Source of the DNA: Chloroflexota bacterium
Lineage (GTDB): Bacteria; Chloroflexota; Anaerolineae; CG2-30-64-16
DNA length: 64,000 bases
Direction of reading: 5' to 3'
NCBI GenBank assembly: GCA_026389845.1
Contig: JAPLHB010000170.1
Span: 41,368 to 105,367 of the forward strand
Numbering within the stretch: position 1 is the stretch's first letter; each line of letters starts with the position of its first letter. Position numbers and translations under genes: made by a program. Positions 12,319 through 57,595 of the stretch are shown here, in pieces. Under the pieces are notes generated by a model, which did no database searches, was not told where the DNA came from, and saw nothing but the letters and a program-made list of their open reading frames with translations.

Positions 12319-13599
12319 ATGTCACGAATTGACACGAAAAGGCCTGCAGAGAAACCCATGACTGTCCTCTCGGTCGTTATTCCGGCCTATAATGAAGCGG
12401 AGAGCATCCAGGCTGTAATGGAGCGCGTCCTGGCCGTTCGGCCGCGACTGACGGAGGTCGGCGTGAGCGATCTGGAGCTGATCGTGGTGGACGACGGCTC
12501 GCGCGACCGCACGGCCGAGCTGGTCGAGGCCACCCCCGGCGCCCGGCTGATCCGCCATCGCACGAACGGCGGCTACGGCGCGGCGCTCAAGACCGGCTTT
12601 GCGGCGGCCCGCGGGGAGTGGATCGGCTTCCTGGACGCCGACGGCACCTATCCCCCCGAATCCTTCCCCGAGCTGTGCCGCGTGGGACTGGCGCAGGACG
12701 CCGACATCGTCATCGGGTCGCGCATGGCCGGCGCGGCGAGCGAGATGCCGGCCGTGCGGCGGGTGGGCAACTTCATCTTCGCCAACCTGGTGAGCTTGGT
12801 CAGCGCCCAGCGCATCACCGATTCGGCCAGCGGCATGCGGGTCTTCAAGAAGAGTGTGCTCGAACGCATCTACCCGCTGCCCGACGGGCTAAACCTGACC
12901 CCGGTGATGAGCACGCGCGCCCTGCACGAGGGCCTCAAGATGATCGAGGTGCCCATTCCCTACAGCGAGCGCGCCGGCCGCTCGAAGCTGAGCGTGGTGC
13001 GCGACGGGATGCGCTTCGCCCAGTCCATCGTCTGGACCGCGCTGACCTACAACCCGGTGCGGCAGTTGGGGCTGATCGGGCTGGCCTGCCTGGCGGTGAC
13101 GCTGGCTGTGGCGCTGTGGATCGTGGTGCAACGCGTCCAGGGGATCACGACCCTGTCGCCGTGGGGCATCTTCGCACTGTTCACGGCCGCGGTGCTGGGC
13201 GTGGCCGGGGTGAGCATCTTCCTGCTGGGGGTGATGTTCAACTACCTGGTGGCGATCTTCTACAAACGGCCGATCCGCCAGGGCCTCTTCGGTCCGTCGC
13301 TCTTTCGCTCGCCCCTCGACCGGCACTTCTGGTGGCTGGGGCTGCTGGCCCTTCTGACCGGCATCCTCCTGGCCGTCGCCAGCCTGGCCCTTAGCCTGCG
13401 CGGTTGGCCCGCGGATCGGCTCTGGTTCTGGCAGCTCGGCGCCGCGATGAACGCCATCATCGGCGTGCAACTCATCATCGGCTGGTTCATCATGCGGGTG
13501 CTGGAGGAGTTGAGCCAGCGGGAGGCGCGGGTGGCGGGGGATATGCGGGCGAATGGGCAGGGGTCAGGGGGCAGGGATCAGGAGTCAGCCCACCCATGA
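12319..13599 (+). CDS. GT2 glycosyltransferase (polyprenyl-phosphate sugar synthase-like) with C-terminal membrane domain
   Basis: [14 protein letters not shown]...[10 protein letters not shown]...DADGTYPPE are the GT-A motifs. Several transmembrane helices follow. An alternative start is at 12358. Confidence 0.85.
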
Positions 13600-15209
13600 T
13601 GACTAACTCGCCCAACCTGGGCACGCGCCGCCTTCCGCCCCTGCCCGCGGCGCGCTTCCCGGATGCTGGCGCGGCCGTGCAGGTCATCATGCGCACATCG
13701 AAACAGCCGGCGAGCGCGGTGGACATCCTGCTCGTCAACCCGCCCGCGCCCGACGGCGGCATCTGGATCCGCAGCCAGCACCGCGTGGGCCGGCGCTCGC
13801 GCGAGAACATGATCTGGCCGCAGGTGAGCCTGGCTCAACTGGCCGCACTGCTCGTCCCCGACTATACGGTCGAGATCGTGGACTGCATCGCCACGCGCAT
13901 GGGCTGGCCGGAGTTCGAGAAGCTGCTGGAGCAGCGGCGGCCCAAGGTCTACCTGACCCAGGTGACCGCGCCGACTCTGCGCAACGACATGCACGGCGTC
14001 TTCGTGGCGAAAGCCCTCGGCGCCCGCACCATCGCCTTCGGCACACACGTCACGCCCTGGACGCTGGAGACGATGCGTCCCTTCCCCGCCCTGGATTTCG
14101 TCCTGCGCGGCGAGCCGGAGATGACGCTGCGGGAGCTGCTGGACACGCTCGAAGGTCAAGGTCAAGGCCGAGGTCAAGGCGAAGGCCAAGATCAGGGTCA
14201 AGGCGAAGGTCAAGGTCGAGACCTAGCCTCAACCTCAGCCTTAACCTCAATCTCCGGCCTGGCCTGGCGCGACCGGGGCGAGATCGTCATCAACCCCGAC
14301 CGGCCGTTCATCGCCAACCTGGACGACCTGCCGATGCCGCTGCATCATCTGTTGCCGCTCGACAAGCAGCGGATGCCGATGATCCGGGGGCCGTTCACCT
14401 TCATCGTCACCAGCCGCGGCTGCCCCGCGGGGTGCAAATTCTGCATCAAGCACGTCTCCTATCAGACGAGCGTGCGCATTCGCTCACCGCAACTGATCCT
14501 GGAGGAGATGCAAGCCCTCTCCGCCCTCGGCGTGCACACCGTCCACATGTACGCCGACCTCTTCACGGTGAGCCGCGACCAGGTGGTGGAGCTGTGCCGG
14601 CTGATCATCGAGAGCGGGCTGAAGGTGCGCTGGATGTGCAACAGCCGGGTGGATTACGTAGACGAGGAGATGCTCAAGCTGATGGCCCAGGCCGGCTGCT
14701 GGTACATCACCTGGGGCATCGAGAGCGGCAACGAGTACATTCTGCAGCGCACCCACAAGGGCTACCGGGTGGAGCAGGCGCTCCAGGCGCTCACGTGGGC
14801 CAGGGCCGCCGGCATCCACAACTGGGGCTTCTTCATCATCGGCCTGCCCGGCGAGACCGAGGAGACGATCCAGGAGACGATCGCCTACGCCAAGCAGTTG
14901 CCGCTCGACATCGCCCTGTTTCACATCGCCGCGCCCTACCCCGGCACGCCCTTCTTCTATGAAGTGGTGCGAAACGGCTGGTTCCGCCCCGGCACGGCCT
15001 GGGAAGAGGTGGACATGGATCAGTCCACCGTGCTGGATTACCCCGGCCTGCCGGCCGAGCGGCTGGAGTACTGGCAGAAGCGCGCCACCCGCGAATGGTC
15101 GCTGCGGCCGGGGCCGATGCTGACCTTCCTCAAGGGGTTGAACTCGTGGGAAGGCTTTAAAAGCGCGGTGAGCGTGGGTCTGCAAATGCTACAGTTCATC
15201 CGCAGTTGA
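13596..15209 (+). CDS. B12-binding-domain radical SAM enzyme (class B rSAM)
   Basis: VDILLVNPP...[10 protein letters not shown]...VEIVDC is the B12-binding domain, and [11 protein letters not shown] is the CxxxCxxC cluster. The ATG at 13596 overlaps the upstream stop as ATGA. Confidence 0.85.
14151..14255 (+). repeat. Hexamer simple repeat with a complementary arm, in-frame inside the rSAM gene
   Basis: (GGTCAA/GGCGAA)n is followed by (CCTCAA/CCTTAA)n. It encodes [35 protein letters not shown]. Confidence 0.85.
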
Positions 15210-16250
15210 TCGCGATCCTCGATCTGGCGTTGACCGGCATTGCCGGCGCTCTTTGGTATCTCTGGCCCGCGTTGGGGCCCTGGCCGCTCCTGCTGATCGC
15301 GGCGGGGCGCCTGGCCCGCATTTTAACACCCGGTCACCGCGGATGGCAGCGCACCCGTTACGACCTGCCGCTGCTGCTCTTCGGCGCGACCGCAGCGTTC
15401 GGCGCGTGGCTGGCGTATGATCCGGCCGCCGGCTGGGGCAAATTCTGGGGCATCGTCGGCGGGCTGGCGCTTTATGACAGTCTGGCGCGCGGGCCGGAGG
15501 ATGTGCACATCGCCGGCCGGGCGTTCTCGCCCCAACGACTGATCTTCGCCCTGCTGCCCGCGGTCATCGCCCTCTACTTCCTGTTGACGACCGATTGGTC
15601 GCGCTGGATGGGCAAGCTGCCGTGGCTCGATCCGATCATGGCTTGGCTGGCCGCCTGGCAGCCCGATCTGCCGGGGCATCGGCTGCACCCCAACGTGGCC
15701 GGCGGGCTGATCGCCGCCTTGATCCCCTTGCAGGTGGCCGCGGTGCGAGGGCGGAGGATCGCAGGCCCGCTCGTCGGCCTCGCGGCGCTCGGTCTGCTGC
15801 TGACCGGCTCGCGCGGGGCCTGGCTGGCTCTGGGGGCGGCCAGCGCAGCCTGGGCGGTCTGGCGGGGGTGGATCCGCCGCTGGCCGCGCCAGGTTCGATG
15901 GACCGCGGCCGCGCTGCTGGCAGTGAGCGGAGTCGCCGCGGCAGTGATCGCGCTGGCGCTTGGCCCCGCCCTACTCCCCGGTGGTCGCCTGGAACTCTGG
16001 CGCAACAGCCTCGACCTGGCGCTGGACACCCCGTTCACCGGTCTCGGCCTGGGCGGCTTCCAGATGGCCTATTCCAGCTATGTGCTGATGCTCCACGTGG
16101 GCCACACGATCCACAGCCATAACCTGCTGCTGGACATCTGGCTGGAGCAGGGGCTGGTGGGGGCGGCGGCGTTCGGGTGGCTGCTAGTAGAGTCGGCAGT
16201 GGTCAGGGGTCAGGGGTCAGTCGTCAGTCGTCAGTTTTCAGTGGGGCTCG
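15206..16250 (+). CDS. O-antigen ligase/polymerase-like membrane protein (Wzy_C), N-terminal part up to a frame break
   Basis: It has multiple transmembrane helices and the motif GLGLGGF...HSHNLLLDIWLEQGLVGAAAFGW. After the repeat at 16199-16243 this frame becomes Arg/Gly-rich nonsense. Confidence 0.7.
16199..16243 (+). repeat. Heptamer tandem repeat (GGTCAGG/CGTCAGT) at the frame break in the O-antigen-ligase gene
   Basis: The units ggtcagg ggtcagg ggtcagt cgtcagt cgtcagt tttcagt are followed by a GGGG run (16243-16246). Confidence 0.85.
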
Positions 16251-57515: not shown

Positions 57516-57516
57516 A

Positions 57517-57595
57517 CAGGAGAGAGGGGGAGAAAGGGAGAGAGGGAGAAAGGGAGACACCCCCTCACCCCCGCACCCCTGCACCCCCGCCCCCT
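57517..57595 (+). repeat. Intergenic purine-rich arm followed by a C-rich arm
   Basis: caggagagagggggagaaagggagagagggagaaagggagacaccccctcacccccgcacccctgcacccccgccccc. Confidence 0.85.

Follow-up and report, generated by a model that had tools for sequence, protein, structure and literature searches.

The stretch of DNA considered here, referred to as the window, comprises 64 kb from the genome of an uncultured member of the Anaerolineae (Chloroflexota) and carries a polysaccharide gene cluster. Its genes, named by their Pfam matches, include those for a GT2 glycosyltransferase, a radical-SAM enzyme, Wzy-TPR and Wzm proteins, the remnants of wzt, PMT_2-like glycosyltransferases, several GT4 enzymes, a PD40 protein and a Wzz/tyrosine kinase; the nearest homologues of two of the window's proteins all come from metagenome bins of Anaerolineae or other Chloroflexota, at no more than 69% identity. 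Blocks of short tandem repeats, most often of seven nucleotides (nt), occupy the gene junctions and parts of the coding sequences of this cluster. A reading made from the sequence alone (hereafter the sequence-only reading) had held that no described family fits them; this was overstated, as heptanucleotide long simple-sequence repeats (LSSR) of the STRR type match (PMC4679880, PMC4692102), and the blocks are members of this class rather than a new element family. What appears to be undescribed is the arrangement of these arrays: neighbours are near-exclusively inverted copies of one word, and nearly all of the resulting pairs share one handedness, with the G-rich arm first.

Tandem arrays were called with Tandem Repeats Finder (TRF) and set against order-1, order-3 and order-5 Markov simulations of the window. 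TRF reported 102 rows, with seven the commonest period (23 rows, compared with 1.6-2.4 in the simulations). Ten period-7 rows scored at least 40, a level reached by none in 60 Markov simulations, and arrays with periods of 6, 7, 8, 14, 16 or 21 cover 1,525 nt of the window, compared with 96-150 nt when simulated. Twenty of the 23 blocks listed in the sequence-only reading coincide with TRF arrays, at or within a few bases, and those at 17688, 21726 and 55191 were missed or only partly caught, yet are visible in the sequence; the vocabulary of words that it had proposed is likewise borne out. The peptide periods that it had quoted, ASCLLPP/ASCLLSP and NLQSAIR/NLQSTIL, are exact in translation, and its view that the periodicity resides at the nucleotide level, and not in selected protein repeats, is supported. 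The heptamer blocks contrast with a repeat of the ordinary coding kind, kept in frame, at 6240-6392 (42 nt, 3.6 copies), which forms a coiled coil in a 1,310-residue protein with three Amidase_2 matches (3438-7370). The blocks themselves are concentrated at 13.5-21.9 kb and 49.3-57.6 kb, with none of note in the housekeeping flanks and only one (32973) between 22 and 49 kb. The G+C content of positions 22000-48900 is 0.55-0.60, compared with 0.64-0.69 in the flanks, and this segment looks like a later-acquired part of the polysaccharide cluster in which arrays have not accumulated so far.

All positions refer to the + strand, and blocks are TRF arrays unless stated otherwise; each was folded on both strands and compared with dinucleotide shuffles (z-scores). 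The first, 13555..13588, is a single G-rich arm, (GGGGTCA/GGGCAGG)x4.4, at the GT2 C-terminus, overlapping the start of the radical-SAM gene (Pfam); it includes a G-quadruplex (G4) motif at 13555-13576 and has a folding z of about 0. The variable linker of the radical-SAM enzyme is filled by a hexamer hairpin at 14152..14254, (AAGGTC)x11 followed by (CCTCAR)x5 (alignment A4), which folds at -46.9 (z -3.75) on the + strand and -63.8 (z -8.0) on the - strand. Within the Wzy gene (Pfam Wzy_C) lies the single arm (GTCAGGG/GTCAGTC)x6.4 (16191..16244), followed in the Wzy-TPR open reading frame (ORF) by a weak G-first composite, (GGGAGAGA)x4.6 then (CTCAGC)x3.2 (16361..16440), of marginal stability (z -2.3, on the - strand only). 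A single ORF runs without interruption through Wzy-TPR and Wzm (15206-17821), which join at block 16929..16992, where AACTGAC-type units, recognised in the sequence, and (CCCAACT)x3.4 supply an in-frame ATG at 16949 with no in-frame stop, and a G4 motif on the - strand at 16968-16993. Five degenerate GGGNNCA units within Wzm (GTGVSGQGSGDS; 17688..17722) fall under the TRF threshold.

Three hairpins accompany the wzt remnants. That in the first wzt 5' fragment (18746..18818) consists of (GATTTCG)x4.6, a 13-nt loop and (CAATCCG)x4, and folds at -22.0 on the + strand and -33.7 (z -3.6) on the - strand; the reading frame of this pseudogene shifts across the block. The sequence-only reading had rightly recognised a repeat here but, in writing it as (CGGATT)n, had given it a period of six in place of the actual seven (GATTTCG/CAATCCG). 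After the third wzt 5' copy, (GTCRTCA/GTTCTCA)x9.6 is separated by an 8-nt loop from (CCACTGA)x4.1 (20510..20612; z -4.0 on the + strand, -5.5 on the - strand), and a diverged copy of this hairpin, 75% identical and two units shorter, lies 3' of an MNT/HepT cassette (21726..21815; repeat family D1; z -2.4 and -5.3). Throughout this region (17825-21860) wzt, the gene for the Wzm/Wzt exporter ATPase, is in pieces: its first 60-100 nt are present in three copies (18649, 19782 and 20410), the Walker-A piece has a 24-nt insert (18884-18907) and the 'LSRITEP' piece occurs at both 18945 and 21823, with neither an ABC signature nor a Walker B motif found anywhere in the window. Four toxin-antitoxin cassettes (TumE-like, PIN, YafQ/RelE-like and MNT+HepT) lie between the pieces, and sigma-70-like promoter matches are found in this array of pieces and cassettes at 17845, 18993 and 20670. 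A comparable arrangement is seen at 1339-8330 of two related loci, L002 and L003, where a fragmented UDP-GlcNAc 2-epimerase gene (1339-1728 and 6505-6675) has PIN and two MNT/HepT-type cassettes between its parts; tandem toxin-antitoxin insertion into polysaccharide genes with 5'-end duplication may be a habit of this lineage.

At the gene junction 32973..33035, (AATCCGC)x2.3 and CCGCAATCCG surround the palindrome CACCTGC..GCAGGTG (z -3.3 and -3.5). Loop 1 of a PMT_2-like membrane glycosyltransferase (..ASCLLPPASCLLSP..) holds a long hairpin (49383..49534), made up of a 15-mer in two copies, (GACAGGG/GTCAGGG)x5 and (CCTGCCT/CCTGTCT)x9.4, which folds at -88.5 kcal/mol on the + strand (z -4.1) against -76.5 on the - strand. 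The second loop of this glycosyltransferase (NLQSAIRNLQSTIL; 49657..49728) has (GGCAAAC)x4.9 abutting (AATCYGC)x5.7; a single C-rich arm, (AGCCTT)x4.2, follows at 49861..49886, and the final loop, together with the beginning of the final helix, contains the hexamer hairpin (AAGGYT)x4, 19-nt loop, (ARCCTT)x5 (50258..50335; z -4.5 and -5.7), encoding EVKAKVKAQ..SASALTLTLAF. The blocks at 49383, 49657 and 50258 were also placed by alignment A2. An AACCTY/GACCTT run (50481..50530) covers both the stop codon of the PMT_2-like gene and the start of the GT4 gene that follows, and (AACCTTGCACCTGC)x2.3 lies directly 5' of a GT4 start codon (53515..53546), both being recognisable in the sequence as well as by TRF. 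This GT4 gene has three insertion sites, defined in alignment A1: site 1 holds a CCTTCGCG-type array with periods of 8-9, 16, 27 and 31 (PFASFAFVPFVLRVLRGPSRLRDPN..; 53952..54077), site 2 (GTCAGGG)x3.4, (CAACCAA)x2.7 and (CAATCTG)x2.7 (54278..54350), and site 3 (CAATCTG)x4.7, which is 100% pure (54391..54430). The start of the PD40 gene is spanned by AACCTTGACCTCAACC with (CACCCAA)x2.6 (55191..55240), where a short AACCTY run, seen in the sequence, adjoins the TRF array. Two linkers of the PD40 protein are occupied according to alignment A3: (GTTGAG/GCTGAG)x6 follows its Cys/His N-terminal motif (VEVEDKAEVEAE; 55395..55430), and a 21-nt period composed of three CCCTGAC-type heptamers, in 4.5 copies, forms the Pro/Thr linker after its membrane helix (55561..55676). 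In the latter TGA stays out of frame, and L002 has (CCTGACC)x14 at the same site. Finally, between the PD40 stop and the Wzz/tyrosine-kinase start, a G-first composite of (GGGAGAAA)x3.8 then (CACCCCCG)x4.6 (57517..57595; z -2.5 and -3.5) has G4 motifs on both strands.

The sequence-only reading had described the usual block as a purine-rich arm followed by a complementary one. This is a real and recurrent architecture in eight or nine of the 23 blocks, the rest being single arms. Folding in excess of dinucleotide shuffles is present on at least one strand in eight composites (14152, 18746, 20510, 21726, 32973, 49383, 50258 and 57517), with z from -2.4 to -8.0, and z is about 0 for more than half of the blocks. 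It had further been suggested that G-U pairs favour the + strand transcript, hinting at strand-specific hairpins in RNA. The asymmetry holds for 49383-49534, but in the other seven hairpins it is the - strand that folds more stably, and of 43 composites from related loci 16 are more stable on the sense strand and 24 on the antisense, so the suggestion of strand-specific RNA hairpins is not upheld. No T-run terminator pattern was detected at any block in a terminator consensus scan of the window, the site after the GT4 gene (55042-55065) being a separate, ordinary terminator-like hairpin with no array. Nor did any of the Rfam 15 families match a block at gathering score; the window's only match is tRNA-Lys (CTT) at 10207-10279, the sole RNA gene found in it. 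Sense-strand RNA hairpins were rejected as an identity for the blocks on these three grounds.

There are 11 G4 motifs in the window, compared with approximately two expected, and six or seven of them are in blocks (13555, 49420 and 57526 on the + strand; 16968, 55660 and 57568 on the - strand). This excess, together with the eight or nine blocks that fold far better than shuffles, is what would be predicted if the arrays were selected nucleic-acid structures, either sense RNA hairpins or G4, with effects on transcription, translation or the stability of mRNA. In Nostoc, heptamer repeats are reported to have regulatory effects (bioRxiv 10.1101/2022.06.06.494920), the orientation of arrays near stop and start codons, described below, matches that of G4-forming GGGNATC repeats (PMC4692102), and the handedness of the pairs could reflect selection against an unpaired C-rich RNA arm being exposed first. 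Such a role is nevertheless very improbable, given that sense-strand stability is not preferred (one of eight hairpins in the window; 16 against 24 across loci), that folding is absent from over half of the blocks, that only GGGG- and GGGAG-type words can form G4 (which takes four or more units, each with a run of at least three G, and so leaves out the GCAATCY, AAGGTC, GTCAGTC and CCTTCGCG words), and that words, copy numbers and presence vary freely among orthologues, with no preference for a type of spacer and no terminator tails.

A scan with one genome per species yielded 80 loci around orthologues of the GT4 gene, nearly all named as Chloroflexota (Anaerolineae, Caldilineae, Thermoflexales, Ardenticatenaceae and Promineifilaceae), with two bins named otherwise. 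Translations and alignments A1-A4, with homology on both sides of each block, agree with the earlier claim that the blocks are read through in frame within real enzymes. Every block in an intact ORF is free of in-frame stops and confined to a variable loop or linker; the frame is broken in one pseudogene only, the first wzt fragment, where the shift falls inside the array. The GT4 enzyme of the window has 485 residues, most orthologues having 410-420 in an overall scatter of 408-491. Its excess lies at the three insertion sites, where relatives carry FASFALRALR/PSRLRAPN, NLQSSILNLQ, QLPMSNVQLPIANV or CLPASLST and distant orthologues have no repeat (A1). The PMT_2-like protein is likewise variable at four or five inter-helix loops, its orthologues ranging from 423 to 615 residues (A2). 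By contrast, the PD40 and radical-SAM blocks fill linkers that are variable in relatives but of similar length (A3 and A4), which implies that a block can overwrite a loop without lengthening it. Avoidance of stop codons was rejected as an explanation for the vocabulary, as words with stops on both strands are only mildly depleted (4-7% of observed words, compared with 13% of all possible heptamers).

Two comparisons bear on the rate at which arrays change. At GT4 site 3 the loop has 32-33 residues in 64 of 78 loci, 36 in the window and 78 in L068, and the words in the window, L002, L007 and L068 are all variants of xCAATxx, which implies long persistence with drift of the word. The proteins P0002 and P0003 match at 464 of 466 residues and otherwise differ by a single 10-residue repeat unit (30 nt) at GT4 insertion site 1 (block 53952..54077), which is direct evidence of a recent in-frame change in copy number. 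The presence/absence polymorphism among orthologues that the sequence-only reading had proposed to look for is found to the extent that the same sites carry other repeats or none; a clean insertion between close relatives was not found in four moderately diverged pairs, one of which shows replacement of an arm. In this pair, L210 (13005-13095) and L242 (10370-10465), contigs that are 98.4% identical over 10 kb differ in one spacer: L210 has a full (ATTGCGG)4...(AATCTGCG)3 hairpin, and in L242 an unrelated GC-rich hairpin replaces the G-arm, with the C-arm kept. Arrays hence turn over much faster than their flanks. In L004 (11321-11446) the orthologue of hairpin 50258 has a 126-nt in-frame insert in its loop, and this insert, being palindromic too (TGTCCAGGCATGAGTTCC ... 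GGAAGTTATTCCTGGACGA), places one palindrome inside another within a coding hairpin.

Gain or loss of units of seven, which is not a multiple of three, would shift the frame of polysaccharide genes, and the arrays could then be contingency loci that switch surface structures, for instance in evading phage. The concentration of the window's blocks in the polysaccharide cluster, their near absence from the flanking housekeeping genes, the frameshift of wzt inside its block and the heptanucleotide phase variation known in Haemophilus are in keeping with such a role. It would nonetheless be a most unlikely one for arrays that are found elsewhere in essential genes (DnaE, IspDF and a TPP enzyme), are half or more intergenic without any promoter preference, and are mostly impure (66-90% matches). 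All intact genes are in frame, the sole length difference between strains is one of 30 nt, and wzt is also truncated and interrupted by cassettes and is thus simply a dead gene.

The distribution of arrays is patchy. Over 84 Chloroflexota loci, for which array density and composite folding were tallied, approximately 25 have at least 4 nt/kb (to a maximum of 99 nt/kb) and 43 have none; density does not follow GT4 identity, and G+C content was rejected as the cause since array-free loci include some with G+C of 0.66-0.70. The longest array, (GGGGTCA/GGGGACA)x23 in L004 (13841-14001), begins 4 nt past a stop codon and is G-rich on the sense strand. Across these loci there are 134 distinct words, which are shared (with at most one mismatch) by 12.9% of within-locus pairs more than 400 nt apart and by 3.8% of pairs between loci. 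Two further samples were selected by word rather than by gene: a scan of metagenomes for (CAATCY)3.7 gave at least 120 loci (707 kb), and the same one-word selection gave 47 IMG/VR contigs classed as viral (L205-L251; 365 kb), some of which carry five or six (CAATCY)n matches. A universal vocabulary was not supported, as the 24 words shared between two sets of loci are a modest excess over the approximately nine expected, among 134 words in all.

Among the metagenome matches listed, period 7 dominates, with 262 arrays compared with eight of period 6 and 39 of period 8, and the IMG/VR loci contain 117 period-7 arrays. The ORFs with arrays among the listed matches encode DnaE, HrpB helicase, IspDF, a TPP enzyme, a sulfatase and Planctomycete-type PSCyt/PSD1 proteins; 52% of the arrays in these matches are intergenic, 23% at ORF ends and 24% in ORFs, in DNA that is approximately 79% coding, compared with 50% within ORFs in the orthologous polysaccharide clusters. 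The array (AATCCGC)n is present in metagenome contigs and proteins named from six or more phyla, with array translations in ORFs named as Acidobacteriota, Verrucomicrobiota, Phycisphaerae, Bacteroidota, Desulfobulbaceae, Bordetella hinzii and Ardenticatenaceae. The phenomenon is not confined to the window locus, to polysaccharide genes or to Anaerolineae, and its recurrence at orthologous sites in independent assemblies, and in many other genomes, excludes the assembly artefact, or restriction to one locus, that the sequence-only reading had allowed for. With one word shared by six or more phyla and by viral contigs, the question is a general one and not peculiar to a single genome. The arrays are also a nuisance for annotation: 31-74-residue ORFs over intergenic (AATCCGC)n (P0241-P0340) are annotated as 'major type 1 subunit fimbrin (pilin)' or 'fimbrial subunit', names that are an artefact spreading through databases.

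The pairing of arrays was surveyed in 203 loci (approximately 2 Mb), taking arrays as neighbours if separated by no more than 120 nt and words as the same if they differed by no more than one mismatch. Among 174 neighbouring pairs, 84 are inverted copies of one word and only five are direct. The two arms of the inverted pairs are equal in length and purity, and the loops have a median length of 26 nt (range 0-116 nt), a quarter of them being no longer than 15 nt; 73% of arrays have no detectable partner array. This hairpin architecture, with one word at several unlinked sites of a genome, would be compatible with small non-autonomous mobile elements, resembling MITE, REP/REPIN or Rickettsia palindromic element (RPE) hairpins, that enter junctions and, in frame, genes such as those for DnaE, IspDF and HrpB. 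The presence of arrays on IMG/VR contigs and the nested palindromic insert in the L004 hairpin loop can be read in the same way, and possible transposition has been suggested by Subirana and Messeguer for Chloroflexus heptamers (PMC6749651). However, the loops of 40 GATTGCG hairpins, at 0-104 nt, are mutually unrelated in sequence, which indicates that there is no element core, and no conserved terminus is found among these same-word hairpins either. Target-site duplications were not seen in their 12-nt flanks, inspected by eye without a dedicated script, and Pfam detects no transposase, integrase or RAYT-like protein in the window. The 134 words, and the gradual drift of xCAATxx at one orthologous site, are also difficult to reconcile with copies of a mobile element, which is regarded as an improbable identity for the arrays. 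MITE in particular were rejected on account of the unrelated loops and the lack of flanking duplications.

The inverted pairs have a marked handedness. The 5' arm contains more G than C in 79 of 83 pairs and less in four (p = 4e-19), and it is the purine-rich arm in 65 pairs against 16. Counted by distinct word, of which there are 47 in all, the G-rich arm is first in 43 against three, and the ratio without the word used for selection is 39 to four. The same order prevails in codirectional spacers on either strand (22:1 and 14:0), in convergent (8:0) and divergent (5:1) ones and in ORFs (8:2), in the IMG/VR loci (13:1) and in all eight hairpins of the window. As a control, perfect inverted repeats of this DNA that lie outside arrays show no handedness (171:177), and terminator-like hairpins, among which there is no array hairpin, lean in the opposite direction (18:31), although not significantly. 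Because the reverse complement of G-arm, loop and C-arm is unchanged in form, this handedness cannot be a product of transcriptional or replication-fork direction and, being identical on both strands, carries no information on which strand is used. Hairpins are found in codirectional, convergent and divergent spacers in the ratio 37:8:7, roughly in proportion to spacer DNA (64:22:14%), which argues against a role at transcript ends; the arrays were likewise rejected as intrinsic terminators, none being among the terminator-like sites. In unpaired arrays the sense strand is mostly the G-rich one near stop codons (63:31) and mostly the C-rich one near start codons (37:20). This rule can be restated as the strand entering a spacer from either flank being G-rich, as expected of hairpin remnants with one arm.

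A polar process acting on DNA might produce such a pattern. A G/T-rich 3' end, at a stalled fork or resected break, would fold back and copy itself (snap-back synthesis), leaving 5'-(G-rich word)n-loop-(C-rich word)n-3' on both strands; slippage would then resize the arms and insertions enlarge the loop, as documented in L004, with single arrays being one-arm remnants. The handedness over 47 words, with or without the selected word, its constancy across gene contexts and in the IMG/VR loci, and its absence from ordinary inverted repeats and opposite lean in terminator-like hairpins would all follow, as would the equal arms, the short loops and the orientation of unpaired arrays if these derive from decayed hairpins. 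Set against this are the lack of any identified enzyme or intermediate, of an inner-to-outer gradient of decay and of a reason for the period of seven; furthermore, selection at the RNA level could yield an equal handedness, and 73% of arrays have no detectable partner. It is doubtful that a polar process at the DNA level, possibly snap-back copying, operates across bacterial phyla and has left the inverted heptamer arrays as its trace. Were this correct, the published rule on G-rich repeats near stops and starts would be a by-product of handedness and not of gene regulation, and a polar process would be continually rewriting tolerant enzyme loops.

The explanation preferred as a whole, and considered moderately probable, is that these are LSSR shaped by slippage, intra-strand template switching and selection. 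Replication slippage would give rise to arrays and resize them, and a neighbouring complementary array would be made, and kept complementary, by fold-back template switching within a strand at quasi-palindromes. Arrays with a common word may also exchange sequence between sites. Purifying selection would remove every copy that breaks a gene, so that the survivors mark junctions and tolerant loops. On this view the arrays would be mutational by-products or selfish passengers, rather than terminators, strand-specific structures in RNA or mobile elements that have a core.

Several observations weigh against this explanation. Foremost is the handedness of 79:4, for which it does not account; slippage alone also fails to account for the 84:5 excess of inverted over direct neighbours, for the recurrence of the same few words at distant sites of one genome, or for (AATCCGC)n in at least six phyla. 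The period of seven is left unexplained, and the template switching is deduced from the architecture of the arrays. No signal for the direction of array growth was seen, the likeness to the word being 0.418 in the loop-side flank and 0.395 in the outer flank, with a null of 0.396. Blocks often replace a loop without lengthening it, and the one close pair shows replacement rather than a simple indel. Finally, the window covers 64 kb of its genome, and gene calls in the related loci were crude (longest ORF and third-position G+C, GC3).

Whatever their origin, arrays that lie in frame in enzyme loops and turn over are a steady source of variation in protein length and sequence. Their handedness provides a simple, countable signature that slippage, template switching, break repair and RNA selection must each reproduce. 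Heptanucleotide arrays have been known since 1990 and were recognised in 2007 as the commonest long simple repeats in many bacteria. No description of dense in-frame occupation of enzyme loops by non-triplet units, of near-exclusive inverted pairing or of handedness was found in the literature searched, which did not cover two key older papers; nor was there a paper on heptamer arrays in Anaerolineae, or one printing an AATCCGC array.

Comparison with known systems begins with the STRR sequences of heterocystous cyanobacteria, which, in work going back to Mazel in 1990 and Vioque in 1997, are reportedly tandem heptanucleotides dispersed in large numbers at gene junctions, with genome-specific words, as are the arrays of the window. 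STRR can form both sides of a helix, as in P12 of RNase P RNA. The window differs in its phylum and its words, and in that half of its blocks lie in frame inside enzymes; to our knowledge, inverted pairing and handedness form no part of the description of STRR. Membership of STRR in the strict sense (heterocystous cyanobacteria, words STRR1-3) was rejected, as the closest relatives of the window are metagenome-assembled genomes of Anaerolineae and other Chloroflexota and the words differ. RPE are lineage-specific, in-frame palindromes in tolerant surface segments of proteins, occurring as 100-150-bp copies of a conserved sequence. In-frame palindromes are found here too, as the hairpins at 14152, 49383 and 50258 lie in ORFs with homology on both sides, but RPE were rejected since there is no 100-150-bp consensus and the hairpins at 14152 and 50258 have only a hexamer word in common. 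REP/REPIN sequences resemble the arrays in being short, imperfect, genome-specific palindromes with many copies per genome (PMC3116915). They are, by contrast, a fixed, non-tandem, extragenic sequence of 20-40 nt accompanied by a RAYT gene, and were rejected because the arrays lack a fixed unit, their arms being of variable length with 134 words and many of them intragenic.

Closer parallels are found among LSSR. Heptanucleotides are the commonest class of these and occur in excess in many genomes that are large and GC-rich, with slippage as their proposed origin (Mrazek 2007, as relayed in PMC4679880); heptamers are enriched in Xanthomonas and Nostoc (PMC4692102). These sources agree with the window in the dominance of period 7, in large genomes of high G+C content from non-pathogenic bacteria and in a patchy phylogenetic distribution. 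The arrays are built of tandem 5-11-nt units with seven the commonest, exceed expectation from composition and vary in copy number among relatives, all as in LSSR; the mainly intergenic location of LSSR is seen in the word-selected loci (52%) but not in the window and orthologous clusters, where 50% lie inside ORFs. Differences from the LSSR work are that units in coding regions are there multiples of three, in contrast to the non-triplet units read in frame in the window, and that the hairpin pairing of the window arrays is not described in it. Within the Chloroflexota, (GATAGRA)n of Chloroflexus aurantiacus is a dispersed satellite family with a single, scattered heptamer word, whose conservation led its authors to suggest transposition (PMC6749651). 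This family tells against the earlier view that the blocks could not be attributed, although it belongs to the Chloroflexia rather than the Anaerolineae, has a different word, and was described with no analysis of coding loops, inverted arms or handedness. The TAACTGA repeats of marine Beggiatoaceae (MacGregor 2015, PMC4679880) are heptamers at gene starts that overlap stop and start codons, and related AACTGAC-type words are found in the window at 16929 and 20584; they consist, however, of a single word, mostly 5' of starts, with a proposed regulatory role and no inverted pairing reported. The GGGNATC repeats (Rehm 2015, PMC4692102) are G-rich heptamers of variable copy number, with approximately four units preferred, that lie in the sense orientation just after stop codons and antisense just before start codons. 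This rule is reproduced by the unpaired arrays here (63:31 and 37:20), and, as only the GGGGTCA and GGGAGAAA words are capable of forming G4, it extends to words that are not G4-forming and to paired arrays.

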